A stretch of 57,758 nucleotides of DNA, counting the filler, from Dugesia japonica (taxonomy: Eukaryota): the NCBI GenBank assembly GCA_001938525.1. It is 4 parts of 4 records of this genome, joined end to end, with 100 filler letters (N's around TTAATTAATTAA, not from the genome) between each part and the next. Parts side by side here need not be neighbours in the genome. Positions count along the whole stretch, not along the records: positions 34,268 to 48,561 come from MQRL01623286.1; 3 more parts are not named here. One strand, written 5' to 3'. The first letter of the stretch is position 1, and every line of letters starts with the position of its first letter. Positions 25,180 through 54,274 of this stretch are shown one piece after another. Below the pieces are notes generated by a model that saw nothing but the letters and a program-made list of their open reading frames with translations, had not been told where the DNA came from and did not search any database. A program made the position numbers and the translations under genes.

Positions 25180-25279
25180 NNNNNNNNNNNNNNNNNNNNN
25201 NNNNNNNNNNNNNNNNNNNNNNNTTAATTAATTAANNNNNNNNNNNNNNNNNNNNNNNNNNNNNNNNNNNNNNNNNNNN
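25180..25279. other. Artificial scaffold spacer (44 N + TTAATTAATTAA + 44 N)
   Basis: The same 100-nt structure, with a six-frame stop linker, occurs three times in the window. Confidence 0.95.
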
Positions 25280-28400: not shown

Positions 28401-31400
28401 AACGTTTGAAAACAGAAAAATTCGCTATGGTATCTACGATTTGGAGTACATTCATTGAGAACATCCAAAACTGTTACAAACCGGGAGGTAATATTACTGT
28501 AGACGAAAAGCTATTTTCGACTAAAGTGAGATGTAGATTTACACAACACATGCCTAATAAGTCTAATAAATTTGGAATCAAATTTTGGTTAGCATCGGAC
28601 TTCGATAGTAAATACATCATAAATGCACTTCCATATCTAGGAAAAGATGAAAATATACCCTCTTCAGTACAACTATATAAATATGTTGCACTCAAACTCA
28701 TGGAACCATTTACGGGTTGCAGAAGAACTGTAACCACAGACAAATTTTTCACAAGCCAATCCCTAGCAACACAACTACTAGCAAAAAAAACTACGTTTGT
28801 TGGAACTATCCGGTCAAATAAAAGGGAATTACTAATAATTGCGAAGCAAAAGAAAGATGATATGGAACGCTTTTCATCAAAAATTTTCACAAAAGATAAT
28901 TGTACTCTTACAATCTATAAAAAAGGTACTTGTACTTAGTTCTAAACATAAATTTGTAACAGTAGAAAATAATGATAAGTGTTTACCTGAGTGTTTGGCG
29001 AGGAAATTTACTACATAATCTAAGTCTTGCAGATGGCCTCATCAAGTATTTTTCAATATCCTTAATTTAGCTGGCATAAATACCTGGATTTCAGGATAAA
29101 ATAACTCGAGTCAAGATTTTTTACTTAAGTTAGCAGTAGAATTTGGCGCCGATTTTCGAGAAGTCTATGAACATCCAAAAGAAAGAAAACATACGAAACG
29201 ATCGTTGCCTAAGTCTACGACAAATGCTTATCAACGTAAGACGTGTCAAATAGGATATTGTAACAAAAATAAAACCAACATAATTTGTTCTAAATGTAAA
29301 AACATATGTTTGCGAAAAATGTACAATGGAGGCACCATGTATATGTAAAAAATGCGATGAGAAATGAATAAAAAATTCTTATTCTTTGCGCTTGTAATAT
29401 ATATCGACAATATAGAATTTTGTTTAATTATAATAAAGTTAATTTTTATTTTTATTTCCTTCCTAACATACATCAGGAAACATAAAGTCTGGTAATATAG
29501 TACAAATAGTTATTTATTAAGTGTTGGTATGTTTAGTGTTAAAACTCATACCATACTATACGATATTTTATTAATTTTAGTCAACAAATATACAAAGTTC
29601 TCGAAAATATTCATTATTCAGCTATTTGTACATTTTTTCTTATATTTTTTCATTAATCTCACATAAAATACTGTAATTATTTCAAGCATTTGCTCAAGAA
29701 CTATCTCGGAATTTTTAACACAATGATGCACTCCATGATTTATGAAATATTGATTAACGTTTAGTTGTTATTTATAGATATGGTTAATTTTGGATAACTC
29801 CATTTGAACAAATCCTTTTATGTAACCCAAAGATTCGCATTTTCACATACCAATAAACAATTTCACAATATTTTCATTCATTAAATCGTTGTAAAATAAA
29901 GATAAAATTTAACTATTATCTGTCAAAAAAAGCAGTATAACACCACATACAAGATGTTTTCATTTTCAATATTTTGTATTAACAGTTAATTTACAGCTTC
30001 AAAGTCTATGATTGTCTGATAAATTAATAATCATGCAATATTTTACTAATGTATTCCTGGAAACTATATTTGGTTTTTCAAATTGATAGACAGTTTCTTT
30101 GATATTTGCATTTTGTAGTCATATAACGAAATCTATTCCAAGAAAACACAAGAAACATTAACAAAAGCTGGACTTGTGCAGCTGGATATCTCCTTACAGT
30201 CCAGATCTTGCACCAAGTGATATCTGGTTGTTCAATCATCTGTAGATACATTTGCAAGGACATAAGTTTGTTTCAAAGGATTATATGAAGGACAAAGTGA
30301 CGAAATTTCTCATGCAGAAGGATCAAAATGTCTTTAGAAGGGGCTTCGATGGAATGCTCGACCGCTGTTAAAAGTGCGTCAATGTAAACGGGGATTATAT
30401 CGAGAAATGAGACCTATGAATATATATTTATTGTTAATAAAAATTTTTTTGAGTTAACTTAATTATTTCTGGTAGATTCTAAATAATTTTAGCCTTACCA
30501 CGTATCTAAAGAAAAATATTATTTTGACTGGGCGGATAATTAAATTATTAAATGTTTTACTATAATATTGATTTAATTTGTACCATTTTTTACCAAGATT
30601 TTAATTTCTTGAGATAAAATGAACATTTTATCTACTGAATTAACTCATCTATATTTCTTATCCAATTCTGATAATATACATGTTATAACATTAAGAATCT
30701 TTAAAGCATTCCATAACACTATGCTCCGTCTTTTAGCAAGTTCTGAATAGCGTCATATTTACTTGATTACGCACAAGATCTCAGATAAATTTCCAAAATA
30801 TTATTTGGCTATTTCAACGACTCTGATTTGAAACTTGTTTCACTTTTAGTTGATTTCAAATAGAATAGATTACATTATAAATTAAATAAGATTGCTGTTA
30901 AATTTAGATTCTATCTAATGCATCTGATTATGTAGTATTTAAAATTTAATTATAATTTGTTTTAAATATTAACGAAAATTTGGATTAGTCTATTAGACCA
31001 ATTGTTTAATCAAGCACATTATTTTAGAAAAAGAAGAGATAAAATAAAAATTTTAAATAATTTTCTAGGTACCAATTACACTAGTGGTAATTAAGTATTA
31101 CTACAATTACTTATACAAAAAATCAATATTTTTACTGCGTAATAATAATCAAATGTATACTTTCAAGTATTTACAAACCATGTAATATCATAGGCTATGA
31201 ATAATCGATTTGTGCAATTTTTACCAAGTTCCACTGTGTGTAATGTAAATAATACCTATTTACAGTTAAAAAATATAAATAACGAATACAATTTTTCAAT
31301 ATTACTTTTTAAATTTACCCAATTTAGTGGTTTTCAAAATATAGCTAAATGGTTATAAATTAATATTATTCAAAGTTTTGAGTTTTTCTTAAACACTAAA

Positions 31401-32285
31401 CGATTTATTTATTTTTAAAAACACGTAAAATTTTTTAAAAAGCATTTTTCTTGTATACTAAACCATTTTAATAGAATTTTTTAATATATTAAATACTTTT
31501 TTAAGCTTACAAGAACATAAATTTTATTTTAGTAACATTTTTATAATTTTTCAATAACTTATAATGATAAAATTTTTACCTTGTGTTCCAACTAGAATAC
31601 ACGGCAGTTCCCCACATATAGAATTATTTCTCAATTTAAACAGCTGTTCATGCAACTTATATAGAACATTTAAACTTTCTTCTTTTTCTAAACTAAATAC
31701 AAAAATAACACCATCAACCCAATTTGAAAATTGATAGTCAGGAGGTTCAGCACCATCATCACGAATCATCATTAAATAACTATCATCGCCATCTAATATT
31801 ACTTCTTTTTTGAAACGACCACCTAAACAATTTTATATTAATTTATATTATTTTAAATTAACCTTCATCATATTCATTCTGAATGTAAGTTCCAGTGAGG
31901 TACCTATGTATTAAAGATGATTTTCCACTACAGCTAGCACCAAGAACTCCCTAAGAATTGACTTATTTAATTATATTTAAATTTTCATCAAATTACAAGT
32001 CTTATTTCGTGAATTCCATGAGTAAGCGTCCACTCTTGACTATTAATAAAAGAATCTAGAACAGAAAATAAAACTATTTAAAAATAGGGTTATTAAACCT
32101 TCAATACAATGCACAAATTCTCTTATTTGACTAGAAATTTTTAATTCTGAAATTTGATCTAACAGGTCATAAATTTCGTAAATACATGGATGGACGCTTT
32201 CAAATCGATTTATTTCTTGTTTGATCGTTTTAGACTTAATATATTTATATTTTGTTGTTTCGTCAGGTTCTTGATATGAGTTCAT
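25290..32285 (-). CDS. AGAP1: AGAP / centaurin-gamma (GTPase-like domain and start of PH domain); 8 coding exons, 3' part missing at the spacer
   Basis: Exons 32285-32099, 32055-31997, 31950-31863, 31822-31580, 27210-26747, 26266-25985, 25904-25818, 25460-25290 are all GT-AG and phase-consistent. The spliced protein has AGAP hallmarks: [113 protein letters not shown]...LTYHP. The symbol denotes the family (AGAP1/3-like). Confidence 0.95.
25818..25904 (-). CDS. AGAP1: AGAP exon 7
   Basis: [29 protein letters not shown] (compare AGAP TPTPVRKQSKRRSNLF); ccgtag| and |gtgagt. Confidence 0.88.
25985..26266 (-). CDS. AGAP1: AGAP exon 6 (S/T/N-rich linker)
   Basis: 282 nt, phase 0/0, between ttatag| and |gtacga; open frame HTMKTKQLP...QQSVQ. 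Confidence 0.8.
26747..27210 (-). CDS. AGAP1: AGAP exon 5
   Basis: (D)[44 protein letters not shown] followed by a low-complexity linker; tttag| and |gttatt. Confidence 0.9.
27401..29538 (+). mobile_element. piggyBac transposon with both ends, decayed transposase, inside AGAP intron 4
   Basis: 12-bp TIRs cactaaacatac / gtatgtttagtg; TTAA follows the right end and ttaaa precedes the left. Transposase motifs [47 protein letters not shown] and a Cys-rich C-terminus; multiple frameshifts. Confidence 0.93.
28406..28939 (+). pseudogene. piggyBac transposase core fragment (DDE_Tnp_1_7-like)
   Basis: Longest surviving open frame, containing the first two catalytic Asp motifs (TVDE, TTDKFF). Confidence 0.9.
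30130..30504 (+). mobile_element. Mariner 3' remnant inside AGAP intron 4
   Basis: [17 protein letters not shown] ... [24 protein letters not shown], followed by a TIR-like end ...ccttaccacgta. Confidence 0.85.
31580..31822 (-). CDS. AGAP1: AGAP exon 4
   Basis: (G)[23 protein letters not shown]...[12 protein letters not shown]...ILVGTQ between tttag| and |gtaaaa. Confidence 0.92.
31863..31950 (-). CDS. AGAP1: AGAP exon 3 (P-loop)
   Basis: [29 protein letters not shown] between cttag| and |gttaat. Confidence 0.92.
31997..32055 (-). CDS. AGAP1: AGAP exon 2
   Basis: (D)[19 protein letters not shown] between ttctag| and |gtaatt. Confidence 0.9.
32099..32285 (-). CDS. AGAP1: AGAP exon 1 (coding part)
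   Basis: MNSYQEP...[22 protein letters not shown]...IREFVHCIE, donor G|gttta. Confidence 0.9.
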
Positions 32286-32939
32286 GCTATATACAAATTA
32301 GAATACCATTTTAAAATTCATAAATAATAATTTAATAATAATAAATATATTTTAATTTATTTGATTTACATGTGATATTTTAAACAACTCATTCAATATA
32401 AATTTGAAAATTTTTTATTACAATAGATAAAATTAAATTAATTATTAAATTTAGTTTTACACGATCTTAATCGCTATAAATTTTACGCGATTATTTTAAA
32501 AAACATAAATGAATTGTTTAAGCTTCCTATTGAATAATTTAACATGTAACATCATTCATGATAATGATGAAATATTATTTTCTAGTTTTATTATTGCAGA
32601 ATTTTGATTCTGCACATTCAAAGATAGTTATTTAGTATTTTTTAAATATTTATGAGATATTTTTGAAAAGTTTGTTTTTCATAGTTGCAATTTAATAAAT
32701 CAACTCAATATACTGTTTATTTTTTATTGAATATTCATTGTTGTTATTGTGGTGAAACACTGGCCCACGAAATAAAAGAAATCGACAGGGGCTTGAAGTA
32801 ATGATAATAAGAAATAATAAAGCCAGGAGGCCCCAAATAAGGAGTGGTATTTCAAAAATTAAAAATAATTTTAACAATAAAGTCAATAAATAAAAAGAAT
32901 CAGGGAAATACCAAAATTAATAAGAAATACATGTTATAC

Positions 32940-33358: not shown

Positions 33359-34730
33359 GGAAAAAAAAATTAAGAGATCGAAATTTGGTCAACAATAATT
33401 AAAAAAGGTAAAAGCATAATGAATTCGAATCGCTAAAGATTTTTAAAAAAAACTGAAATATTACAGAAAAAATTAAATAAGTTTTCTAGAAAAAGAGATT
33501 TAATTATGCAGAAAATCAATAAAAGAGGAATAACGTCCTTCAGAATAGTCAAAACAGGATGGGAAAGAAAAAATCAATAAGCTAACGTCACGAGAAATGC
33601 AATGTTGTTAATTACGAAGCAATATCATCACCAGAAGGGTTGGAAAAATGACTGTTAAGATTGGGCCAATAAGAGACCATTGAAAAATCAAGAAATAAGG
33701 AATAAGAAAGTCACAAGGTGTCCAAAAATAGGCACCAATTAGAGATATTGTGAAATAGAAAAATCTAGAAATCAGATACAAGGTAGAAAAGCAGAAGAAG
33801 AGTCTAAAAATACTAAATTAATCAGATGGTAGCAGTGGTGCAAGGTAAAGGTATATAAATCCCCATTTTTTAGACAAAAGACACCCTCATTTTTTGAATC
33901 ACTTTATGTATTTTCGGCTTAGTATTATTGTTGGGGTCCCACCTGAGTTGGAAAAGTAGCTGGGGAAAAAACAGCCCTCAGGGGAACCCTTTCAAGAATT
34001 TACCCTACCGTCCCTGCGGTAGGTACTGAGTTTACTGCGGTTGACTTCACTCTTAATGGGAGGTGCACACCAGCAAACCTTTAGTTCGGGTTTTACATAC
34101 TTTCCCTAATCTATTTAAGAAAAATTAATAAATCCACTCCAATTCTAATTGCAATATTTATTAGTAANNNNNNNNNNNNNNNNNNNNNNNNNNNNNNNNN
34201 NNNNNNNNNNNTTAATTAATTAANNNNNNNNNNNNNNNNNNNNNNNNNNNNNNNNNNNNNNNNNNNNTTATTTAAATAAATAAATTATTTATTTTATTTT
34301 CTTGGTGTATCTTAATTAATTGTTCATTCTTTGTTTTTTGAGACAAATATTAATTAAATTCTGCTAATTTCTTCCACTAATTAATTCGTTTAATTTATTT
34401 TCTGTAGGTTGATTATTTCCTTTAACTTCTTTTCTTTTATTTAATGAATTATTTTCTTCCGTTATTAATTTTCCCTTCTTTGTTCTTTCAGTCCGTTTTA
34501 TTTTCTCTTCCAACATTTCTTTTCTTCCTTCGTTACTTTCTAGGTTACGGATCATTTCCCATATTTAGTTCCTTTATTTCGGTTTTTTTTCAATTGTTCT
34601 TTTTGGTAACTGGTCTAACTCCTTCTTTTACCTGCTTTTCTCTGTTTTCAATCTTAGGATATTCTTCCACATTTTGGTGTACCTAATCGCTAGTTTGTTT
34701 TCCCTTCTCAAGTGTTTCACCCCAACACTA
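33356..34730. mobile_element. Probable LTR-retrotransposon LTR fragments, including a tRNA-iMet-like PBS
   Basis: Purine-skewed non-coding DNA; TGGTAGCAG at 33827-33835 after ...atcaga; TGTTGGGG starts at ~33928 (+) and ~34727 (-). Boundaries are uncertain and the region spans a spacer. Confidence 0.35.
34168..34267. other. Artificial scaffold spacer
   Basis: 44 N + TTAATTAATTAA (34212-34223) + 44 N. Confidence 0.95.
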
Positions 34731-35186
34731 GTATTTGCAGAAAAACCTATATACGCCAGAAACAATATGGTTGATAAAGATTTCATTATGGGGAGCATAG
34801 AAAATTTGAGGAATCAACCGTATAAAACATATTACTTCTTTAATACTGCTGAGCAATTAGAAAAATTAATTAAATTAAAATAATAATAATTAGTTGTTTT
34901 CTTGTTAGTTTTACTTTAAAGCCAATATTTAATCGATGACTTATGAAAATTTTAAAGTCTTTCAGTGATAACATTATAAATATGTTATCATATAAAAATA
35001 ATTCTTTACAAATTGAATAGATGAATTTGAAAATATATTCTTTGTACAAAAAATAATTTTACTGCAAATCAACATTTGTACTTTTACGGTCAAATAAACA
35101 TGTTAAATTTTCGTTAGAAAATTGCAAATAAGCGACACATATATGATTTCCATAGAAATAAACGTGTTGACAGAAAATTAAATACG

Positions 35187-35324
35187 TACTTACCCCATCC
35201 CATAAAAAGTGAATTTATAAAAAAATTAAATTTGTATTTTTCAAATATATACGTGATAAAATGTTAATATTAATCATTTAAAATTAAAATTAAAATATCC
35301 ACTTTTTATGGGATGGAGTAAGTA
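35187..35324. mobile_element. Tc1/mariner-type (Stowaway-like) MITE
   Basis: 25-bp inverted repeats tacttaccccatcccataaaaagtg / cactttttatgggatggagtaagta (1 mismatch), TA at both ends, ~138 bp in total. Confidence 0.8.
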
Positions 35325-35567
35325 TATTAATAATTTAATTTTAAATTACTTTTGCGATTAATTTTTAAATAAAACTTCGAATTTTCAAAATTAATAAAAT
35401 CAGTCCNAAATGTAATTTTACTGGGTAGTTTAAATGAAATTCAGTATTCATGTTTTAAAATTATGCACAATTTATAAATCAAATTTTAATTGTTTTTTCA
35501 ATTATTAAAATTATACTTGTTTTAATAATCGGAATTTGTACGTAATTTTTGAATCTTTAGCTTGTGA

Positions 35568-37268
35568 ATGTCAGATTTTCAACCGAAGTGTTCAAGGAAA
35601 CGTAATTATAAGCCTGATTCTTCCAGTAATTGTGTTTCTTCCTCATCAAAAAGAAATTTCAAATCTTCAGAATTATGGAATAATTTTTTATCAAATTTAT
35701 CAGTCGATTTAGAAGGTTCCAAAACTAATACAAATGCAGAATTAGTTTCAACAGAAAATAAATTATTGAAAGCTAATGAGGCTTTATCAACTGAGTCATT
35801 AATTTATGAAAAAAATAAAGAAAATGCAGTTAATAGTTCATCATTATCTACTGTAGACCCAAATTTTTCATTGAACATTGTAAGTAAAAATGCAGTTAAT
35901 TTATCTTTATCTACAATTTTGTCAAAGAATAGCGAAGATGGTTTGCCAAGTGAATCCTGGTCTGAAGTTTTGGTTAACATATCCCAAGATGTAATCAAAG
36001 ATACTTCTCCAAAAATTTCCAGTGAAAATCAAATTAAAATCGAAAATTATCAAAATATTAAAACTGAAAACGATACCAACAATTTATATAAGATTACTTC
36101 TTTAAAGCTCGAAAAACATATGAAAACTGAGTCAAGTTCCGATATTTTCACCAAAACACCACAAAAATTAGATAGTGATAAAACCGATTGTAATTCAAAT
36201 AAAGAAAGTCTTTGTTTTAAAATAAAAAATGAAATTGATATTGTAAATCTAAATTATTTAATTGAAAATCACAAAACTTCTACACCGGTTAAAAAANCTC
36301 GTATTAAAAAACATTTAGAAAGTTTTTCTTCAGATGTAAGCTGTTCTTCGATTTGCTTATCGAATCGTAGTGTTCGAGACAATTCCATTTTGGAAAAAGA
36401 GGGAACTACATTAAAAATGTTTCGGGGAGAAATTCCAATGAGGAATCACATGAAAATGGTTCATTTGAATGACACATTTCCCTGGAAATGTTCAGAATGT
36501 GGGGAATTGTTTTCGGTTTTTATTGATTTTGTTGCCCACGAAAAAGTCGTTCATAACAAACACGAAAAAACTTGGAATTGTTACATTTGTGCTGAAATGG
36601 GGGACGGAGTTTATCAATGTCATTATTGTAAATACAGCAATGCATCATTGTTGCATTTTGAACGTCATTTGAACAAGCACAAGGTTGATAAATCGATAAT
36701 TCAGTGCCATTTTTGCGATAAAAAGTTCGATAAGAAAAACGTTATGATGGACCATATCAAGAGTTTCCATCGAGAAGAGAAGCTCGAATGTCAAATTTGC
36801 GGAATAAAATCGACAAATTTGTCGCAACACATCTCGTTGGTCCATAAGGGACCACCGAAAACATGTTCGATTTGCGGACAACAGTTCAAATATAAACGAG
36901 ATTTGCAGCAACACGAAAAGAAAAAACACAATGCGAAGCCGTTGACAAAGTGTGACATCTGTGGGATCATCTTGACGGATTACTACTATCAGAAGAGGCA
37001 CATGCTGGTACACGACAAACATCTCGATGAGAATGGGCAATATTTGCCGATTCCAGAATCTGAGATTAGGAAACTCGATGGAATCATCAACAAACGTCGA
37101 ATGAATAATCCGTATCTATTTGTCAGTACTTTGTCCGGTCCAGATCAACCTAGCTATTGTTCTCATCTGGCAACCGATGTTGCTAGGCAACAAGCAAATG
37201 TTCTAATCAATTCTAAAATGACAGACACTTCAGATTTGAAATTCTTTGTGACGCAGAATAATAAATAA
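35568..37268 (+). CDS. C2H2 zinc-finger protein (6 complete fingers and 2 half-fingers)
   Basis: 566-aa ORF: S/N/K-rich N-terminus, then CSEC..HEKVVH, CHYC..HLNKH, CHFC..HIKSFH, CQIC..HISLVH, CSIC..HEKKKH, CDIC..HMLVH. AATAAA overlaps the stop. A splice acceptor (ctttag at 35560) just upstream suggests an earlier exon. Confidence 0.9.
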   Translation: MSDFQPKCSRKRNYKPDSSSNCVSSSSKRNFKSSELWNNFLSNLSVDLEGSKTNTNAELVSTENKLLKANEALSTESLIYEKNKENAVNSSSLSTVDPNFSLNIVSKNAVNLSLSTILSKNSEDGLPSESWSEVLVNISQDVIKDTSPKISSENQIKIENYQNIKTENDTNNLYKITSLKLEKHMKTESSSDIFTKTPQKLDSDKTDCNSNKESLCFKIKNEIDIVNLNYLIENHKTSTPVKKXRIKKHLESFSSDVSCSSICLSNRSVRDNSILEKEGTTLKMFRGEIPMRNHMKMVHLNDTFPWKCSECGELFSVFIDFVAHEKVVHNKHEKTWNCYICAEMGDGVYQCHYCKYSNASLLHFERHLNKHKVDKSIIQCHFCDKKFDKKNVMMDHIKSFHREEKLECQICGIKSTNLSQHISLVHKGPPKTCSICGQQFKYKRDLQQHEKKKHNAKPLTKCDICGIILTDYYYQKRHMLVHDKHLDENGQYLPIPESEIRKLDGIINKRRMNNPYLFVSTLSGPDQPSYCSHLATDVARQQANVLINSKMTDTSDLKFFVTQNNK

Positions 37269-38899
37269 ATGTTTTTCACATTATTTTTATCTGTTTGTGT
37301 GCGTGTGTTCTCACCGAAACGGTAAATGGGGATCTACAGGGGTATTGTAACATATCAATATTATGTAAATAAATAATTTCTTGCATTTGATTACAATTTG
37401 CACGAGTTTTAACTTACGAATTTATTTTATATGAAGCTGTGTAGTAGAAACGGCACAAGTTATAAAAGTGTACAATCCAAATAATTAGGCTCAGTTATCA
37501 ATGAAAAATGAATTCAATCAACAATAAATTTCATGAATTTTGTGTATTCGTTTTTGTATAATTCGATTTTATTATTATATTTTTGAAAAACTTTCAACTG
37601 GGTCAATCGATTTAAATGAAATTTTATATACAAAGTTTTCGCGGACCACGTACTAAATACAACCAGAAATTTGATTAATTTAAGATGAATTACTTTGTAT
37701 CTTTGTGTGCTTAATAAACGAAGAGTGTTTATTTTCGATTGATGTTTTTAGTTTGTCTGAGAACTAGAAATTTTGTTATATAAATGTTTTTGTTCAGCAT
37801 TTTCGTAATTTTATTTTTTACTATAACGCTGTTAGAAATAATTATTGATATCAATACAACCTGGAAAATACTCCACAACAGTATTAGGCAAATAAATCAT
37901 TTATATCTCATTTCATTGATAAGGATTAGTATGAGTTTTCAATTACGTATTTATTTTATATAATGAAACAATTTATCATAATCCGCTATTCAGTTAAGTT
38001 GAAATTCCAAGATGAATTTTTTTGAATATTTAATTCATAAAAGTGAACCATCTGAATTATTATACATTATTTCCTACTAAAAAATTAATCCATTTTTTAT
38101 CATCTTCAAGTTTTCGTTTTTTGCTCGTTTCGAGTCTATCTAAACAAATGTTTATAAAACAAATCAGAAGAAAATTATTTTTCGGTCGATGCAATCAATA
38201 TTTATATTTAAAATTACTGCTTATCTTGTTATTTAATATGGTTTATGCAAACAAGTCAATACAGAATACGCCATATTAGAATTGAGAACTGCTTTTAAAT
38301 GTATTTATTTTGGATATTTAATGGATATCTATTATTTTGGTAATAAATTTGAGCTGTCAAAAAGTAAAACTTTGACGGGTGACGCGTTGATTATCCCGGA
38401 ATAAATGAAACAAGAACTTTGATTAATTTAAAGTTTTTATTTTTATAATCTCGGATTGATTTTAAGAAAAATAAATTTATTGGCTGCTTGTAGAAATATT
38501 AATTGAGTTATTGTAGAAAATCTTAAAAATATATTTATTAAAGTTACTAGTTTATTTTCCATTATTTTCTTTTCATTATCATGTGAAATAAGTTGTATCA
38601 CAACTTTACAATGATATTAAAGATTGAAATTCTCTGTTAATAGATTACATTTCTATAAATAAATAGAGCCTGTGTGAATAACATGATCAAAGATTGATTC
38701 AAATCTAATAAAGATTCATAAATGTTGCGGAATAATTCATGAAACAAATGATAAACTATTAATCGTTTATTGCAGAGTAATTTTTACGGTACAACAGTAG
38801 ACAGATAGTGGCACACTGTTACAATTCTTATTTATTAAATTTCCATTGATTTCCTTAATTTCTCTAATTTTTATAAATTTCAGAGTTTAGCAAGAGATG

Positions 38900-40120
38900 C
38901 AGGAAGGCAGTAAATAATAATAACCTGTTTACTATTATATTCTTATTTCAAGATAGTATTTTGATACCACAACATGATGCATAATAATATTCAATATCTG
39001 GGTCTCGCTCTTCATTTATTGATAGAGTTGATGTTTCTACTGTTATATCGTCATCTGGAATAAATACAGTTTCCATTATATTGCCTGGATATAAAGTCAA
39101 TGATTTCATATCTAAATTTTTAACTTATATTGAAAATCTCCCATCTGTGACATTGCTAACATTGCAAGTCCTAGATATACAATATTTTCCCATCCATAAC
39201 GAATTTGATTCGAAAAATATTTTCCTTGATGTTCATTAGTGGTATTAACTACACACACCGCTTCTGTCAAACGGTGGAATAGTGATTAGTTGATCCACAT
39301 AAGCTATATGTTCATCATAAGCCTTTCTACCAGTACGTGACGTCTTCACTAATTGTTCAGTTACGCAATCATAAACAACGTTTTTAAGTTTACACATTAC
39401 ATCCATCCCGAGTACATATTCAAATGGACATCTTCGCATAACTTTGATATTGTGTTTCATCTCTTGATCACATAATTTAATGCTACATTCCAGATAGCCA
39501 ATTATATCTAGTACTATTTCGTTTACTCCGGTAGGTTTGCTGATTATTTATACTTTAAACTCCGATTCTGATTTATTCAAAAGATTAGCGTCTATGATAG
39601 TGATATCTGATCCTGAATCTATCCTAACATATATGGTTTATGAGAATAACTGTTTACATTTACCATACAAACGGTTGATTGAAATGCTGTGATTCCCAAC
39701 ATATTTTCTCTTAGTGTATCAAAATTCGAGTCTGATTAATTACCATGATTAATATTTGTCTGATGTTTTTAGTTTACTATACCATGGATGACGAGTTCTG
39801 GATTCGGATTAGGTAAGTTTCTTGTCCACGCTTGCTCTTTCTCCCAATCTTGGAACTCTCTCGCTACATCCTCTTGAGTGAAATTTATAGGCAATTGTTG
39901 ACTTGAATTCATTTAAAAAAAAGCTTCGATCAAAATTTTTATTTTAAATGAATTCTGTAAAACGATCAATGGTTATGTCCAACAATTATTCTCGTAATAC
40001 TTGCAATTGTAAAATTATTGACCTCTATGTTTTTCAAATAGGACACGTATTAAACTTTGTGATCCTGGTTTTGCCTCCTCATATGCCAGAATTCTCTCCA
40101 TATCTAAATTGTCAATGTTA
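38900..40120 (-). mobile_element. Gypsy/Ty3-type LTR retrotransposon gag-protease remnant
   Basis: Aspartic protease motifs VRIDSGSDITIID (~39595-39630) and EYVLGMD, with decayed gag-like sequence upstream; no RT. Confidence 0.7.
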
Positions 40121-40474
40121 GGTAATTATAAAAATTTGCAAATATTTTTAAAATTTAATGCAATGTTATTAGTTTACATTTTTTACTGTAAATAATTAGT
40201 AAAAAATTTTAATAATTAAATTTTATAGCTTCATTTTTTAAATTACTGGAAATTCGAGGTTTTAGATTTAAAAAAAATATTTTTAAAATATATATCCAAA
40301 TTTGTTTAAATTTTTTATTTATTCAAATATATAAATTGGTAAAGGCAAGTTTTGAAAGAAGCGTTCAAAAAGAAAGAAGAATTTCAAAGAAGAATTAATT
40401 GTAATTGAAATAAAGTATTGAATTAAAAGTCTTGTTTTAATTGATTTAAATGAAGAAGAAAACAAATAAAACTA

Positions 40475-41045
40475 ACAGTCTTAATTCATCCAATTCTTTT
40501 GTTGGACATCTTGGAGGGGCAGTCGGTGGATTTTCCATATTTATCCGTGAATTGTAAGGTCCTTGTCCTAGTAGCCATCATTTGCGATCCCTTTTGTTTC
40601 GACTAAATTTTACATCTTGTCAATCAAGAAATTTCTTGCCTGTCCATTTTCTTGAACTTTGATTAGTCTCCGCATCACGTTTGGATCCATCACTGCCAGT
40701 ATCACTATCCTACAGATTATCCTCGGATTTTAATCATACAACCGTATGTCTATCAGTTCCGCTTTTTAATTTCAACTTTTTAAAATCATCGTTATGTCGC
40801 TTAAGCATGATAAGCTTTGTTCAAAACGGAAATAGATGCCATGTCCAACCACTCATTCTAAATATTCCATAGGTTGATAAAAATTGAGTGAGTATTGTTT
40901 TTTGATATAATCAATGCAAAGATTACTCTTGAGAATCCAGACATTATTGTACCGAAAGAACTAAATTTACCCAATATCCTATTTATTAACCATTTTGCTG
41001 CATGTTTGTAATGCTCAGGGCCAAATAATAAATTGTAATTTGGTT
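40475..41045 (-). pseudogene. Putative chuvirus-like glycoprotein (env-like) C-terminal fragment
   Basis: With one frameshift: NYNLLFGPEHYKHAAKWLINRILGKFSSFGTIMSGFSRVIFALIIS/KTILTQFLSTYGIFRMSGWTWHLFPF*TKLIMLKRH, then a charged tail ending NPPTAPPRCPTKEL. Resembles the recalled chuviral G pattern GKF..FG..S.G..[TM]..K..I......Y......GW(S/T).HL. Recognised by eye only. Confidence 0.55.
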
Positions 41046-41810
41046 AGAATATCTTGCGGGCATGCGGTCACATCAACCGTTTATTGTTTTAACTAACACT
41101 TAAGTTAATTTAGCGGGAAATTCAAATTTCCAAAAATGTTTCTTGAAAATTTTATTATCTTTTTTTCTATTTTTATTGAAAATTTTCTTGGGGTCAAATT
41201 TTAAACTTTCTTTTTTTATTCTTTTTCTTTCATCTATCTTTTATTATTTTTATTTTTTTCGGGTTTCGATGATGTATTTGTGTATGGTTCGTAAATCTGT
41301 TTAGACAATGTTTTACAGAAATGTTCCTGTTGTTTACAGTTACAAATGAAATTTCGGTTTAACGAGTCTATGTAGCGATTTTTTTGTCAGATTTGTATAA
41401 CTTTTGATGTGATAGAAAGAGGAACACAGAGGACTAATGATGGTGTAAAGGCTTAATATTTTTTAGGTGATGGTGTGTTTGTGTAAAAATGCAAATTTTT
41501 TAAATGAAAATCGCGACATAATGAGTGTCGAATGATAATTTTTGGGTTTCCATAATATATTTGAGTTAGCTATCAAAATCAATCTATAAGTTGTCCTGAG
41601 TGACCATGGGCTAAAATGATTGTGTTGCACGAAGGCAGCTTTTGCGTTGCAAATATTAGTTTCGATTTTATTTTTAAGGTTTTATTAGCTTAAAAATATG
41701 AAATAAGACATTTATTTAATTTTTTTAAGTTAATAGTTTAAATCAATAAATTTTTAATGAATATTAATTAATTTAATGGATAGTTTCAGTTACAGTCTTG
41801 TTTTTATTCA

Positions 41811-41860
41811 ATACCATTACATTACCTCCTCTGATATCAGAGGAGGTAATGTAATGGTAT
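41811..41860. repeat. Perfect 50-bp palindrome
   Basis: ataccattacattacctcctctgat|atcagaggaggtaatgtaatggtat; no spacer, no mismatch. Confidence 0.95.
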
Positions 41861-42499
41861 ATGTACGGTCTAACGTTGTGAATTCATCAAGGTCCTTAGC
41901 ATCCGATTCGAGTCCGTTCAAAGTTGAACTTATCGATTAGCTTGCGTAGTTTTAACTAGGCTTAACTCAATTATAGTATGTGCATCTCCGTAACAATGCT
42001 TTGGACCGTTCACACCCGGTCATAAATTGAATACTGCTACAATTCTTTAAAAACAATCAGTCACCATTGTCAATAATTGACTAGACTTATATCGGCAAAA
42101 TGACCAGAAATTCCATCGCAACTGTTACTTATTCAATACATATCATAGTTTATATAATTTAACACATTTTAGATCATATTAATAGAACCTTTAAACATCA
42201 TTGACCATATAAAAATGGAACCTTTTAATAGATTTACTTAAATTTCAATTAACAATAAATTAAATTATCTTACAAAAAAAATCTAATTAAAATTTAACTT
42301 CAAAAAAAATTTATCATATAAACAAAATAAACTTACTATTTCTAATTTCAAATATATTTATAGTATTATGAAATTAAAAATCAATATATTTATTGACTTT
42401 TTAATTTCATATTATCATAATTGATATTATGAAAATTATGAAATTATGGATGAAAATGATAAGAATATAATAGAATATAATATAAATTTAAAAATATTT

Positions 42500-43310
42500 A
42501 TTATTTACATCGTAACCGTATAATATTTACATAGTTACAGTGTATTCTTTGTATTATTTACATAGTAAACGTGTATTATTTGTAATATTTACATTGTTAC
42601 GATGTTTTTTACATAGTTACCTTGTATTATTTACCTAGTTACGATGTATTATCACAAAAAGGGAAGTCTTTATGTTTTTTATTACAACATAACCACAGAG
42701 GGGAGTGCATAGATATTTACATGATAAAATACTTATATTATATAAAATATTCATAGAGGGGAGTCTTTGTATTTTTATTAAAAATGTATATCTATTAAAA
42801 TTAATTATACATGGGAGTTCATGGGTATTTACATTACAGAATATTCAAAGAGGGAAGTGTGACATTTCTCTTAAAAATAGCAAAGAGTGGAGTCCATAGA
42901 TATTTACATATTTTATTATGGAATATAATAAAACATAATCAAAGAGAGGAGTCTTTGTATATTTTTTGTTATAAAATATATATTTAAAAAAATCATAAAA
43001 GCTTAGAACTATTGTAGAATTTTTTTCAAAAATAATGCAAAGTGTCAAACCTTTGTTTAAAAAATTCATAAAGAGTGGAACTTTTCCATATATATAACTT
43101 AAAAGTTTTGTATAAATACCATATAAGACTATATAACAACTTATAAGTAAATATAATATTTTTTTAATGAGTAAATTTTAAGTAATTTTTATTAAAAAAG
43201 TAACTAATTTTATTAAATTCTTTATAAAAAACTTTAAAGTAAATATTTTTATGACTGTATAGGGTTTATGAGTTTATTACTTTCATAGTAACCTTGTAGT
43301 ATTTTCATAA
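42500..43310. repeat. Compound degenerate tandem array
   Basis: About six copies of tatttacatagttac..tgtat (42500-42650), then about eight AGAG(G/T)GGAGT-headed units roughly 40-60 bp apart (42655-43085), then more catagtaac-type units near 43285. Confidence 0.75.
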
Positions 43311-44464
43311 TAATCGTGTTATATAAGGTAGTCATGCAATTGTATGCTCGCGGCATGTACAATTCATGTAAAATGCATGCTTGAGTCATGTTTATAAATA
43401 TTGGAATATATTTAAAAATAATGTCCTATTTATAATTCAAACAACAAATTATATAATTTAAAACGAATTACATCCAATCATATAAATTAAAATGAATAAT
43501 AACCATACATTTCCATTAAAACAGGTAACGTCTAATAGAAACTGTCAGATTGAAACTGACAAATAACAAGTATGTATGTATCGTTGTGAGTATATAAGCA
43601 GTAGTTTTTTTAAAATTAATTACTTTTATAATTCAAAATGCAAGAAAATATTATGAATAAAGAAAATGTCTCTACAATTACTTTGGAACTAGGAAACGTT
43701 TCAGATTTTTATCATCACAAAATATACTTCCTGAAGACACCGATTTATTTTACGACTCTAAAGTAATTTTTTATTTCTTTTTTATAATTTAATTTTGTTT
43801 TAGAAATCGGTTACGATTAAAAGTTCAAAGTATAGTTTTTTAACATCTGGAAGCCACGAAAAAAGACAGAAACATGCTTGAAGCTCTATTTTCAAGAGTG
43901 AGCAAGGATATTGAAATAGTTTGAAGTAGTTTTTCTCAACTTTAAAGAAAGAGATAAAAACACATATGGTAATGATATAAAATGAATGATTTAATATAAA
44001 AAATAAAATAAATATTACTTTTTTCTTTTTTAAAAACTTATCATTCAAACCATGTGGTACCAATGGGTTCTTACAACCCATTATTCTACATTTTCCTGAT
44101 CTGAAGAATATAATTGTAAACTTGTCACTTTTGACTTAAAATTGACATGGTTTACCTATAGGAAAGCTCATTTTCTTTGTAAATTCTTGAGACACTTTAC
44201 CTCTGTAATTAATATTTGTTATCATAATTAATAAATTAATGAGGAACATTGGGGTTTTGATGGAGTTAATTTAATTGATCGGTTAAAACCAATATAAATA
44301 ATGTACTGAATAATTAATAAATTAAAGAAAAAAATGATGGGAAAATTAAGAGATGAAGCAGTCTATAAAATTGTTGGGCCTAGACGTAGTAGTAAAACTT
44401 TGTATGCAAACTACTGAAATCAAATTTATTCAAATCGAAATTTAAAAACATATACTGACAAAGA

Positions 44465-47400
44465 GAATATGCTATTCATCTTTCTAGTATAGATTTTGTG
44501 ATCCCCTCTGCGATAATATTTTTCATCGGGATTAATGATACATACCTATTATGCCTAAGATGCAGGAATAGCCGGCTACTGTTGTTAATGGTCCTGTGAT
44601 GTATACGCATATTGTTTCAAATGGCTCTGTGGCGGTGAATGCTAATTTGATCTTACATCCTAGTTTATTTCCTTCTTTTCTTTGTAACTGGCTCAGAACT
44701 GCCCCCATAGCATGGTGCCTAGCATCAGTATCCAATACAAAAATGTCTGTTTCATTTGGGAATACTAGAACTGGTGAATTTGTCAAAGTGTCTTTTAGCT
44801 TTGAAAGTGACATTGTGTGTTCCTCTTTCCATTTTAGATTTACGATCTTTTTCCTATTTCCAATGATATTAGCTTCTCTAANNNNNNNNNNNNNNNNNNN
44901 NNNNNNNNNNNNNNNNNNNNNNNNNNATTTTCTGTAATAGTTACAGAATCCTAAGAAACATTGCAAATCTTCATTTGTTTGTGGTGGCTGCCAATTTTAA
45001 ACCGCTATAATTTTATCTGGATCTGTTTCAATTCCTCTTTTAGATATAATATGACCCAAATATTTAACTGAATTTCGTAGAAAAGTGCACTTTGTAGGTG
45101 ATGATTTGACTCCTGTTTGTCGTATTTTCTCGAATACTGTTTTTAGTCTCTAGTTATTTTCTTCAAAATCTTTTCCAAAGATGAAAATGTCATCTAAGTA
45201 TAGTACACATTTTTCAAAATTTTCTTCTCATAAAATGAGATGAATTAATCTCTGAAACGTTGCGGGTGCTCTACATAATCCAAAAGGCAATCTGTTAAAT
45301 TCATATTGTCCTCTCCTAGTTGCAAATGCTGTTTTTTCTTTATCATGTTCATTTAACTCAATATTGTAGTAAGCGCTTGATAAATCTAAAGCGCTGAAAT
45401 CTCTTGCTCATGATAATAAGTAAAAATGTTGCTGGTTGTCTGCAATTGAGAAAATGGGTCTTTTCGTTACTGAATTAAGTTTTCGATAATCAACGCATAG
45501 TCTTATATCACCGCTCTTCTTTTGACAAATAACGATTGGTGATGATCATAGGCTTGAGCTCTCTAGGACAATCCTATTGTTTTTTAATTCATTTATCATT
45601 TCATCAACATGACTTTCTTAGTGAAGTGGGGTCTCGTCTCACTGGTTGTGCAATAGGTATTCGTAGCTAGTGATTTCAAAATACATTGAACACGATCTGC
45701 ATTTCCCTTTTCGTAACTTCTAAAGACTTCTTTGATGTGATCTGTCTCTATTAGTGGTTCCACAGTACCAATTTTCGTGTTTTTAAATATCGTAATCTCT
45801 CGATTTTTTATATTNNNNNNNNNNNNNNNNNNNNNNNNNNNNNNNNNNNNNNNNNNNNNNNNNNNNNNNNNNNNNNNNNNNNNNNNNNNNTCTATCTGCC
45901 AACATATCTTTGTATGGACTAAATAAAACATTATCTAAATTAAACAAGTCGCTATCAATTCTAGTTAAAACGTTTATTTCTTCTCTTGGACTGACTACCA
46001 CAGTTCTATCTAAAAGTATAATAATATTACAAATTTGAGCCCCCTATAATGGTTCGCATCAGCTTCTGGACTCTCATAAGCTGAGCGTTCTAGTTTTTCG
46101 TCTCTCTTACTTTAGAGATAAACGGGATTTGTTCTTCATCTGACATCACCGCAATATTCAGACTTTTCATTTCTTTAATGCCTATAATTACTCGAAGAAA
46201 TAATTTATCAACTACTATTATCTTAACTCTCTTAGTTTTATTTCTTATTTTAACTTTTAATATAGAATGACTAATTACCTTTTTATTTGAGCCATTCGCA
46301 CAATTTAACACTTTGTTGGATCGATATAGCTTGAGTCCTTCTCTTTCTCAAAGTTTCTGGAAAATTCCATAGTCGATATTACTTGATTCTGCTCCTGAAT
46401 CTATGAATAGCTTTTCATATTTATCTTCTATATAACCTCTAATAATTGGTTATTTTGCCACCGGTCCACTTCTGCTCTCTGATATCATCGTTTTTGTAGC
46501 CGCATTTATTGGATTTCTTTACCTTGATCCGTTGATGAATTGTTCAATTTGAATAATATCGTCTGGATATTTTATTTTTAGGCTACAATTTTTTATAGTT
46601 TTTCTTTTACTTGCTACTGTTTTAAATAGTCCATTTTCTTCCTCGGTTTTACTTTTATAATCAGNNNNNNNNNNNNNNNNNNNNNNNNNNNNNNNNNNNN
46701 NNNNNNNNNNNNNNNNNNNNNNNNNNNNNNNNNNNNNNNNNNNNNNNNNNNNNNNNNNNNNNNNNNNNNNNNNNNNNNNNNNNNNNNNNNNNNNNNNNNN
46801 NNNNNNNNNNNNNNNNNNNNNNNNNNATGTGCCCTTCTTCTTTGCAATTATAACATTCAATTCTATTCTTAAAATCTTTTGATGTTTTTTCATGGTTAAG
46901 TTGATTTTTTATATCATGATTTTTTCTATCTGTTTTATTTTATATTCTAAATCGGATATTCGTTTCTTTAAAATTTCTATTTCGTTCGATCTTTGACTGT
47001 CCATCTCATTGGTAATCTTTCTCACATAATAATTTTCTGATTTTTGTCTTCTTAATAAGATTAAACGCTTCTTTAAGTGATTTTGGTTTCATAAATTTAG
47101 TCGATTTGGCAGCATTTCGATTATTTATGCCTTTTAAAAATATATTAATAAGGATCTTTTCTCGTTCTATATCATCATGATCTTGCAATTGTTTCATGCC
47201 TGCAACTCGAACTGTTGGTAAATATTGGCGAAAAGACATATTTTCCTGTCTGCAATTAAGCACATTAATTATTGGAATTACTTTAGTCGTTTTTGTGAGA
47301 TTTAATTTAATTAACTCCTCTTTAATTCAATCATAATTTGATATATTGTATCTTAAATTTGGAATTGATCTTAATTCTAACATTGCATTTTCTTCCAAAC

Positions 47401-47670
47401 TGTTCATCAATTTTTCAGATTTTTCCGTTAAGTTAGTTATGTTTTGATCTGTAAAAAACTTCTCTAAATTCGATATATGATTATGAATATTTTCATTTAT
47501 CTGGAATTGTTTGTAGAAATTCGTATTTCCTTGAAGAAATTGGAGAAGTTCTTCCAAACCTGCTCTTGACGCCATGTTGTTTTATGACTAAAAGGAACTA
47601 AATAGACAAAATATATTTAAAAAACTGCCAATTACATATTAGTTCGACTAAAAAAACATCTATTTCTACA
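44465..47670 (-). mobile_element. Gypsy/Ty3 LTR retrotransposon: 5' LTR, PBS, gag, protease, RT, partial RNase H, partial integrase (decayed, 3'-truncated)
   Basis: LTR end ...CAACA then PBS TGGCGTCAAGAGCAGG; gag 47575-~46500; LFIDSGAESS; IRLCVDYRKLNS, LPFGLCRAPATFQR, VLYLDDIFIFG; FLGFCNYYRK; FVLDTDARHHAMGAVLSQ; EPFETICVYITGPL. The PR-RT-RH-IN order is Gypsy-type. The LTR outer edge is a guess. Confidence 0.92.
47557..47574 (-). promoter_or_regulatory. Primer-binding site, tRNA-Ser-like
   Basis: TGGCGTCAAGAGCAGGTT directly after the LTR-terminal CA; similar to the complement of tRNA-Ser(CGA) 3' ends (TGGCGTCACGAACAGG). Confidence 0.7.
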
Positions 47671-48561
47671 CTCATAAAGTAATTTAAAAGTCATGAAATC
47701 AAATTGTAGTTTTAATAGGGATTATGCATAAAAATGCAAATAAAAATATAAAATAACATAAAAATTAATAATAGTCAATTATATAATGCTCAAATAAATA
47801 ATAAGCAGATCATCAGATTTATTATACTGTACAAAATAATGTAGATACAATTTTTATAAAAAATATCAAATATGAATAAAATCGATATTAGAACTTAGTG
47901 CGAGACAGCACAAAATGGAGATCAAAGTATGTATAATCAAGATGTAAGAATTAACGGACCGAAAACATAGGTTAATTACAGTAAAAATGACATAAAGTTT
48001 GAAAATTGATGAGAAGACATTTTATATTAAATTTTGGAGTTTGACATTATAAACCGAATTGAGAAACTAAAGTTTAAGAAAATAATAAAATAACATGCTT
48101 AATCAAATTGAAGGAGGTTATAGACTAATATTAATAATAATTTGGATTATTATAAAATTTTGGTGATTCAAACCAGAACCCGACATTAGAAATAAAAGTT
48201 AGAAGTTGTTGTGCGACCAATCAAATAGCAGTGTTATTAGTTCTTTCGAATATATAACTTTAATCTTGATGACATTTTATTTGAGAGAACTATTTTTATT
48301 GGTTATTTTACGAAATATGATTTGTGAATGTGCGTAAAACTGGTATATATAATCAATTGTAAATGATCATAAAATTTGTTGAAAGTGCATATACACCCTA
48401 GCTCTGTTTTAATGAGAATAGAAATTTGTTCGAAAATTTTAGGGATATTATTGATTTGAAGTCAAGATTAAGGAACGTTAGTGTTGGGAATTCTTTATGC
48501 GTATGTTGCTACAATATTATATATTTGCAATATTTTATCGAAAATTATAGATAAAGTAATA

Positions 48562-50019: not shown

Positions 50020-50780
50020 TGGCAGATGTTTAATAAAATATAAATAACAAGACAATTGATAAAATATTGGTTGATTTTGATAAAAGGATTGAAACTGTGT
50101 TAAATAATCGTGAACCTGATAACACTTTATCAAACTGTATTGGGTCATTGGTTTTATCGATTTCTTATTCCTGAAGGTTTTAAAAAGTTTAAGAAATTCG
50201 ATTCTGAAAGCTGNTAAGGATCTTCTTTTATAGAAAATTGTTTCTACGTCACATAAAATTGTTAATAGCTTTGTTAATAAATCTCATACACCAATAGTTC
50301 TTGAAGAAGGCATAACCGAAATAATCAAAAATGAAGAAAAGAAGAACAACAATTCTGATCTTTTGCATTTAAAACATTTTCTTTTAAATAAAATGGTTTA
50401 TTTAGTTATTTTCACAGATTAGTGGTTAAATTTTTTAAATTTTTTTATGTATTTTTTTTTTAAATTTATTTGTATTTTATTTTTTAAAATAATTTTCAAT
50501 TTAATTATTTTAAAGGTTTGGAAAATTTTTAAATATTTTTGTAAAACTTCTTTGATTTTATAAGTTTAAAATAGTAATTTTAATAAAATATTGTTATAGA
50601 AAAAAATTTTGATTAGAATATAAATTAATTTATTATTGAAAAAATTGTTAAAAAATTTTAAAAATTAAGAATTNTAGCCGTTTTATATTCAGTAAAATAA
50701 TATAGACTGAATAAATTCATTTTTTTCTCATTTTTGTCAGATGATGACAGTTGATCCGTCGAAATAAATAACAATTAAAT
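50020..50780 (+). mobile_element. Penelope-like element remnant with terminal repeat and degenerate hammerhead
   Basis: Frameshifted LSISYS/EGFKKFKK and KIVSTSHKIVNSFVNKSHTPIVLEEG resemble the RT-to-GIY-YIG linker at ~18.0 kb. 50660-50770 is homologous to 54145-54274. Confidence 0.65.
50730..50780 (+). ncRNA. Degenerate hammerhead ribozyme motif
   Basis: tttttgt-CAGATGA-T-GACAG-ttgat-CCGTC-GAAA-taaata-acaa. Core U4 is mutated to A and stem II has one mismatch; stem I ttgt/acaa is intact. Confidence 0.65.
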
Positions 50781-51104
50781 TTTGTTTTACATGGCCCTAT
50801 TTATTGTTTTTTGTTCTATTTGATTTTTGATTTGAAAAAAGTCAATTCCTGACGAAGACACAGTCAAAATATTGATTTAATCTAAAAAACCAAGAAAAAA
50901 CAAATTTTGGTCGAATCTTTTATTTTAAATGAATTACTAATATTATTATAATTAATTGGCCATAGTTCTTATTAGTTTTCCTTAATATTAGTACACTTAT
51001 TACTGTTTCTCGTGTTATTATTATCGTTTTCGTTACTCTTATTATTATTCTTGTGTTATTGCAATCGTTATTGTTGTCATCATTATTTTTATTATTCCTA
51101 TAAT

Positions 51105-52742
51105 TGATCATTATTATTAATATTACTTTTTTCAAACCTGAATTTTCGATTTGATTAAAAACTTTTTTCAATCTTTTTGTATGCTCTTTCTCAGTTTTAG
51201 AAAAAATCAGTATAACATCAAGATAAACAATTGTTTCCTTCCCATTTAATGGTCCAAACACTTTTGTCATTAAGTTTTGAAATCTTGCTGGTGCTGCTGC
51301 TATTTTAAATGGCATTCGGTTGAAGCAAAATTGACCAAACTTTGTAGAAAATACAGTTTTGTATTTTGAGCTTTCTTCTAATTCTACCTGATAATATGAA
51401 TTACCCAAATCTATCGTTGTAAAATATTTTGATCCATTCAAATTGTCACGCATTTTTCCTATATTTGGTATTGGGAACAAGGGTCTCTTCGTGATATTAT
51501 TCACTTATTTAAAATCCAAACAAATTATAATGTCTTTCTTCTCTTTCTTCCAAACACAAACTAATGGACTATTTCACTCAGAGTCACATTGTTTAATTAT
51601 ACTCTTTTCTTCCATTTCTGAAATAGTCTTATTAATTTTATCTTCTAAATGAATAGGTTATCGCCTAGGATTTACTACAACTGGACCACTGTGGGTAACA
51701 ATTTCATGTTTTAATAGTGTTGTCTTACATACATCCCATTTATCTTTCATATAAATTTCTGAAAATCGTTCAATTATATCCCTAATAATTTTATTCACTT
51801 CATTTTTAAAGTTCATAGTTTTTATTTCCAACATTTCTTTATTAATATAATTTAATTTTTAATTTTATAATATTAGGTCCTGGATTTTTACAAAGTGAAC
51901 ATTTAACATTAGTACATTGTGAGCTTATCTGATCTTCTTCTTTGCACGCCCAACATTTTCTCACTCTGAAAGTTTGAATATTGTGTTCATGGTTTCCTCT
52001 CAAAGAATTTATGGTATTTCTCCAATATATCTTGGAATCATATTTTTGCTCATAATTTTTACTTTGATTAAATTTTCTATTGAANTTTGGTTTATTAAAT
52101 CTATTATTTGAATTTTGAATTTTACACGCTACTGTTGCGTATGTAATTGCTTTCTACAACGCTGATATTCCATATTCTGGTTCCATTTCTTTTTTCAATC
52201 CATCAATTTTAATTATAATTTCTTTCATTTTTTTACGATCTTCTATATCTCGCATTTATCATTCATTGAATTTTGTAAAAGGAATTTAATGAGTTTTTCC
52301 TTCGTTAACTGNNNNNNNNNNNNNNNNNNNNNNNNNNNNNNNNNNNNNNNNNNNNNNNNNNAACTGGTGACGCAGAATATTATCTGCTAATTTTTCAACT
52401 TTTGAAAAAAATGAAATTGAGGATTTATTTAGTCTACGATATTTCAGGGCATTAATTAGATCTTTACCAAGGTCTGCAAGCTCTGAAAATGCTTCTCTGC
52501 ATCTTGTTTTAAAATCTTTAATCTTTGAATCAACTGTTTCATATAATTTGACTGCTTTTGTTGTCTTTAAAAGCTTTTAAAATTATTTTCTTTAACTGAT
52601 TCAATGGAAATTCAAAAAGTCTTTTTCCTTCTTCAATAAATTCTTCAATATTTTCTCCTATCTTGAAAATCTTGGGTGTTGAAATCCACGAGTTTAGGAT
52701 TGGTGTGGTTGCCATGTTAGACTTGGAAAACGAATTAAGCAT
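51105..52742 (-). mobile_element. Gypsy/Ty3 retrotransposon gag and RT remnant
   Basis: Gag-like STPKIFKIGENIEEFIEE; RT YFTTIDLGNSYYQV...FNRMPFKIAAAPARFQNLM...IVYLDVILIFSKTEKEH (YLDD mutated to YLDV). Truncated into AAT-rich low-complexity DNA, and protease not seen. Confidence 0.88.
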
Positions 52743-53985: not shown

Positions 53986-54232
53986 AAACTTTAAATATAT
54001 TATATAAATATTTATAAAAAATACGATAGTTGTATTACTGAGTTTTATTCATTTGATCAACGTATGACGTGTGATTTTATAGGTAAAAGTAATAAAATAT
54101 TATTATATAAATTAATTTTTTATTGAAAAGATGTAAAAAAATGTAAAAATTAAGAATTATAGCCGTCTTATATTCAGTATAATCGCATTAATGTTTGTTC
54201 GAATAATATAAACTGAATAAACTCATTTATTT

Positions 54233-54274
54233 CATTTTTGTCTGATGATGACGGTTAATCCGTCGAAATATATA
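54233..54274 (+). ncRNA. Minimal type I hammerhead ribozyme motif with intact core (PLE terminal repeat)
   Basis: tttttgt-CTGATGA-T-GACGG-ttaat-CCGTC-GAAA-TATATA: perfect 5-bp stem II, palindromic ATATAT stem III, AUA site. The 3' strand of stem I is lost in the N gap. Confidence 0.8.

Follow-up and report, generated by a model that had tools for sequence, protein, structure and literature searches.

A decayed chuvirus-type fusion-protein fragment beside a retroelement protease remnant in Dugesia japonica: a candidate ENV-POL junction of a Ty3/Gypsy-like element

The window, by which we mean the whole 57,758-nucleotide stretch of Dugesia japonica DNA analysed here, is AT-rich eukaryotic sequence (15-31% G+C per 2 kb) with N-flanked linkers at 25224, 34212, and 48606. 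An envelope-like (env) fragment and the two retroelement ORFs on either side of it lie together in one assembly block, 34268-48561, bounded by two of these linker gaps, as the first-pass annotation had proposed. No Rfam match was found in 38500-48561. The same block contains a 566-codon ORF with C2H2 zinc fingers at 35568-37268 on the plus strand, which has single-copy depth and some RNA reads. Outside the block, exon-like pieces of a minus-strand GTPase-domain gene that resembles AGAP/centaurin-gamma occupy 25973-32297; in Pfam they match Ras alone, with E=0.015 and 0.082. A piggyBac-like DDE_Tnp_1_7 remnant (28394-28939, plus strand, E=6e-30) is found between these pieces. In the next block, two direct repeats with 77% identity, 50612-50770 and 54099-54274, stand 3.5 kb apart with a Gypsy-type reverse transcriptase (RT) between them at 50920-51504 (RVT_1 E=5e-18), and are possibly an old LTR pair of another element.

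Pfam matches and depth identified a high-copy, decayed Ty3/Gypsy-type gag-pol at 44535-47581 on the minus strand, upstream of the env fragment. It contains gag, a zinc knuckle, protease, RT, and the start of RNase H (RVT_1 E=3e-28, RT_RNaseH_2 E=1.4e-12, Retrotrans_gag E=0.0012), and its last codons resemble what we take to be an integrase start, with no Pfam match. A co-oriented Gypsy gag-pol ending upstream of the fragment had been reported in the first-pass annotation; the element is present, ~3.5 kb away, while its supposed end is not a natural one, the 3' part having been cut off near 44535. Between it and the env piece lie other repeats (41423-44400), in which Pfam found no gag, pol, or env similarity in the frames scanned. 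A perfect 50-bp palindrome at 41811-41860 borders a very-high-copy repeat, and short repeats of 22-31 bp, both tandem and dispersed, occur in 42496-43324. At 43808-44400 there is a very-high-copy repeat (bin depth 80,000-103,000) whose minus strand has a short stretch resembling TBP (Pfam E=0.057, below the cut-off); a degenerate P-loop-like stretch was noticed by eye near 44350 on the plus strand.

The env fragment itself is read from the minus strand. Frame A (41043-40900) gives PNYNLLFGPEHY...IFALII and corresponds, by Pfam and the alignments of relatives, to the membrane-proximal segment of a PF24664 fusion protein (40900-41046). After a one-base shift near 40900 the reading continues in frame B as KTILTQ...GWTWHLFPF to a first stop at 40823, a segment (40821-40901) recognized by tblastn and by a profile of three relatives. 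Frame B then runs on as a charged tail (40446-40820) of ~125 codons past 40823, interrupted by four more stops (40736, 40712, 40622, and 40580) and closed by one at 40446; charged residues account for 36% of its first 113 codons. The quoted peptides, the frameshift, the several stops, and the charged tail in the same frame were thus all where the first-pass annotation had put them, and the ORF track does miss the fragment, with no stop-to-stop ORF of at least 70 aa listed between 39547 and 41463. A hydrophobic stretch at ~40947-40890, lying across the frameshift, had a maximal Kyte-Doolittle 19-residue mean of 1.87, which is consistent with the C-terminal transmembrane segment of PF24664; on hydropathy only, the stretch is likely to be transmembrane. 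On the 5' side of 41046 no homology was detectable, and three frames of 41046-41800 had no Pfam match, from which we conclude that the ectodomain is gone. The combination that marks a functional gB-type fusogen, ectodomain domains I-V within an open frame, was not found. An idea formed by eye, that env similarity reached ~41200 in another frame, was dropped; neither Pfam nor the profile shows anything 5' of 41046. Between the window and the long contigs over the fragment there are 3-6 letter differences and a single gap of unlisted place, so that some of the frame breaks may be peculiar to this assembly or strain.

To identify the protein we read frames A and B through as one query of 72 residues, with X at the shift. 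This query matched Pfam PF24664 (Monjiviricetes fusion) at positions 527-588 of 653 over 62 residues with E=1.1e-5 and a score of 24.1 bits, below the curated cut-off of 27; frame A alone and frame B alone gave no Pfam match. When frame A was compared by phmmer with 1.84 billion representatives, two proteins matched with E<=0.001, P0004 (41%) and P0005 (48%); these and their cluster mate P0006 are ENA proteins without names, and all three pass the PF24664 cut-off (33.2, 45.4, and 72.2 bits). Relatives found in this way also aligned to frame B (tblastn E 3e-9 and 3e-10), and because they had been found using frame A only, this alignment is independent support. A profile made from the three relatives matched the window at 41046-40906 (43 bits) and 40901-40668 (33 bits), the next best match scoring 6.7 bits. 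As the profile and tblastn alignments reach 40668, the gene itself is read in the tail frame for ~50 codons beyond the first stop; similarity to the relatives ends at ~40668-40680. The membrane-proximal motif of chuviral glycoproteins is GW(S/T)xHL, and at that site the relatives have GFTWKL and SWKMI. At the level of sequence, these comparisons confirmed minus 41046-40668 as the membrane-proximal end of a gB/chuvirus-type fusion protein, and the earlier call of a chuvirus-like glycoprotein stands. The term "chuvirus-like" denotes a protein class and is not proof of a direct viral source, since the Atlas clusters nearest to P0006, which were PF24664 clusters (0.94 and 0.93, values of low recognition worth), are 98-100% eukaryotic. 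Word-seeded homologue searches for longer proteins found none for the env piece, the downstream protease, or the relatives' alignment, which is weak evidence. Searches of viral contigs, metagenome contigs, and prokaryote genomes found no relatives (the viral scans being of low sensitivity), and no solved structure matched with E below 0.19.

Downstream of the env fragment an AT-rich spacer (40130-40445; 16% G+C over 40130-40470), with 7-10 stops per frame and no Pfam match, leads to a decayed ORF on the minus strand (39000-40101). This ORF begins with a Met at 40101 and reaches, after ~125 codons, the DSG (39619) of an aspartic-protease remnant, for which the Pfam matches were weak (Asp_protease E=0.012, RVP_2 E=0.033, both below cut-off). 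Ahead of the DSG neither Pfam nor Atlas revealed a gag or zinc knuckle, in the same scan that detected the gag of the upstream element; a 43-residue stretch ahead of the protease gave a best Atlas value of 0.82, which is uninformative. No RT or integrase followed the protease ORF beyond 39000. The first-pass annotation had placed a "gag-protease" ~0.4 kb downstream of the fragment; of this the protease remnant survives scrutiny, at a distance of 0.35 kb, and the gag, none being detectable, does not. Within the ORF there is a partly palindromic, very-high-copy, MITE-like insertion of ~110 bp (39905-40014), with a second copy at 20620-20711 (76%), bin depths of 170,000-286,000, and loose ends at 40014 in 331 (X1) and 316 (X4) contigs. 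The distance from the env tryptophan to the protease DSG is 1,228 nt on the same strand, or ~1,120 nt without the insertion. Compared with one another, the upstream and downstream retroelement ORFs are not significantly similar (best E=1.3), and the locus is therefore not a tandem of one family.

Copy levels were compared by aligning to the window three contig sets, DNA-type or unlabelled, and a single RNA run, the summed contig depth being a rough relative measure and not a copy number. The env fragment had a depth of 8-82 at its five listed sites, contributed by 1-4 contigs; every contig set has a single long contig, of depth 12-14, that covers 40641-41105. Bin values over the env piece, in two bins, were 130-1,018 and are probably inflated by the flanking repeats. 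For reference, the zinc-finger gene and its flank gave bin depths of 17-67. The upstream Gypsy element gave 17,500-39,000 in bins and ~2,000-42,000 at listed sites, and the intervening region 3,500-256,000 over 41423-44284. Depth at the listed sites of the downstream protease was 228-414, several-fold to thirty-fold above that of env, which indicates that many relatives of the protease are without a closely matching env. Among the 24 long pieces listed (of ~97,000), not one spanned both env and protease. In a quarter of the reads of a poly(A) run, the env-bin depth was 0.5-2.8, and 90% of the aligned reads continue in sequence unlike the window.

We think it fairly probable that the fragment is the env half of a decayed ENV-POL junction, from a Ty3/Gypsy element with the order GAG-ENV-POL; its partner is likely to be the downstream protease ORF, 0.35 kb away, instead of the upstream gag-pol. 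In favor of this assignment are the PF24664 match, the lack of gag similarity ahead of the protease DSG, the low depth of env relative to the upstream Gypsy, and the occurrence of such elements in Platyhelminthes (PMC13524379). The top hit P0004, further, runs from the same env segment (residues 4-72) to a retroviral aspartic protease (residues 237-279), 173 residues on, in one ORF without gag, Pfam finding no gag family or zinc knuckle in between; moreover, the 1,228-nt same-strand spacing in the window falls inside the 2 kb ENV-to-POL distance by which ENV-POL elements are defined in the methods of PMC13524379. Against it, no listed piece spans env and protease, the protease is of greater depth than env, the protease part of P0004 (~50 residues) did not align to the window's protease (best E=40), the two parts are separated here by a non-coding spacer of 16% G+C as opposed to the single ORF of P0004, and the argument from order draws on one informative relative of three. 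Since the RT, integrase, gag, and LTR of the env's element are all gone, membership in Gypsy rests on the weak protease match. The same lack of a spanning piece among those listed, the unequal depth, the AT-rich spacer, and the failure of the P0004 protease to match would also fit a piece of an endogenised jingchuviral or monjiviral glycoprotein gene, or the env of an unrelated element, orphaned by chance in a repeat graveyard, with the protease as a separate insertion. The block is dense in unrelated repeats, and glycoprotein EVEs beside fragmentary Gypsy copies, with capture unproven, are described as common in arthropods (PMC10084718). We regard such an orphan as possible, if on the unlikely side: the nearest relative is element-borne with the order ENV-PR, which the strand and spacing in the window fit, no N or L remnant was present in the scanned frames, and the viral contigs, at low sensitivity, gave no relative.

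The remaining explanations join the fragment to other partners. The Met-initiated stretch of ~125 codons ahead of the protease could be a very short gag, in which case env and the downstream ORF would belong to one element of ENV-GAG-POL order, as in the short-GAG elements of the mites Medioppia and Oppia (PMC13524379); since neither Pfam nor Atlas showed any likeness to capsid or zinc knuckle, and P0004 has none either, this is very unlikely. Pairing with the upstream Gypsy as GAG-POL-ENV, the downstream ORF being a second element, had been the suggestion of the first-pass annotation, and it agrees with the shared strand and block and with an arrangement known for this glycoprotein in arthropod Gypsy (PMC13524379). 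The depths of the two are two to three orders of magnitude apart, a gap so large that the upstream family is an improbable owner of this env, and 3 kb of other repeats lie between them; in addition, the upstream pol is cut off and no LTR-like repeat pair flanks the env fragment. The pairing is hence highly improbable, and of the earlier proposal of an env from a Gypsy-type element the likely Ty3/Gypsy-like origin is what remains. Chuvirus G has been captured by BEL/Pao elements of mosquitoes (PMC7642597), and an Anakin-like remnant was considered on that account; the specific Pfam families are absent from all scanned frames of 37500-47581, leaving this with a very small chance.

On the favored assignment, the intact ancestor of the ENV-POL junction would have encoded a membrane-anchored class III fusogen that coated the particle and served cell-to-cell spread, and its pol would have been translated either from a start of its own farther downstream or from spliced RNA. 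Gag, ectodomain, RT, integrase, and both LTRs would have been lost later, and the MITE-like insertion gained. The fragment in its present state presumably makes no protein and does nothing; read from the DNA, it is an endogenous PF24664 fragment and not an intact errantivirus, having neither LTRs nor gag (Pfam found no gag family upstream of env in 41046-43800), though it probably stems from errantiviruses of the published gB type. In P0004 the env C-terminal segment and the retroviral protease share one stop-free ORF. This suggests that some ENV-POL elements may make an Env-Pol polyprotein; the ORF could also be a product of gene calling or of deletion.

A chuvirus-like env on a Gypsy element outside the arthropods, suggested in the first-pass annotation, has already been published: Chary and Hayashi (eLife 2026, PMC13524379) report that the gB-type, Chuviridae-like glycoprotein known from BEL/Pao of mosquitoes also adjoins Gypsy POL in 114 arthropod elements, that many phyla other than arthropods have elements with gB-type ENV, and that such elements in Nematoda, Bryozoa, and Platyhelminthes have the order GAG-ENV-POL, for which Sacco et al. 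2022 is cited in the case of nematodes. Neither the pairing of such an env with Gypsy pol nor this order in the three phyla is therefore new. The same source gives six gB-type elements in Schmidtea mediterranea, with 1-215 copies, and its table counts 253 ENV-POL-type ENV ORFs in Schmidtea mediterranea, along with 20 in Girardia and 5 in Dugesia. Like its gB-type GAG-ENV-POL errantiviruses, the window has an env piece directly upstream of an ORF with a weak protease remnant, on the same strand within less than 2 kb, a likeness drawn from layout, since the available ENV rows of that source cover domains I-II and the window has only the C-terminal end. Of what an intact element contains, only the 3' end of env and part of a protease are left here, with gag, RT, integrase, LTR, and PBS gone. 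Arthropod Gypsy elements with a chuvirus-like glycoprotein join the same glycoprotein class to Gypsy pol, in the default order GAG-POL-ENV (PMC13524379), whereas the evidence in the window favors env before protease. Anakin, a BEL/Pao element of mosquitoes, also carries such a glycoprotein in an LTR element (PMC7642597); the window has no BEL/Pao domains. The Jingchuvirales glycoprotein EVEs of PMC10084718 are likewise broken fragments flanked by fragmentary Gypsy copies, but the nearest database relative of the present fragment is fused to a retroelement protease and is not viral.

P(T/S)AP binds TSG101, and a PTAP motif had been pointed out in the tail. It is present in the tail frame, within PPTAPP, at 40526-40515 (minus strand, 40515-40526), past one frameshift and five stops and outside the part of the tail aligned to relatives, and is the only P[TS]AP in the six frames of the window. 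When the tail was shuffled, PTAP arose with a frequency of 0.0009 (residues) or 0.0001 (bases), the motif having been chosen post hoc, and any of four late-domain patterns with a frequency of 0.014. None of the three relatives has P[TS]AP; P0004 has ASAP, and P0005 and P0006 end before the equivalent position. The sole difference listed inside the PTAP codons in other runs was silent. The terms PTAP, late domain, and ESCRT are absent from the main text of PMC13524379, a thin basis on which a late domain in such env tails appears not yet to have been described. That a GAG-ENV-POL Gypsy lineage carried its ESCRT-recruiting PTAP late domain in the env cytoplasmic tail and not in Gag, so that the envelope drove budding, seems to us doubtful and decidedly unlikely. 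The fragment adds one more decayed env remnant to a kind that was described across animals in 2026; it would gain wider significance only if PTAP proved to be retained in the env tail of copies in better condition, which would offer a testable exit route for these invertebrate elements.
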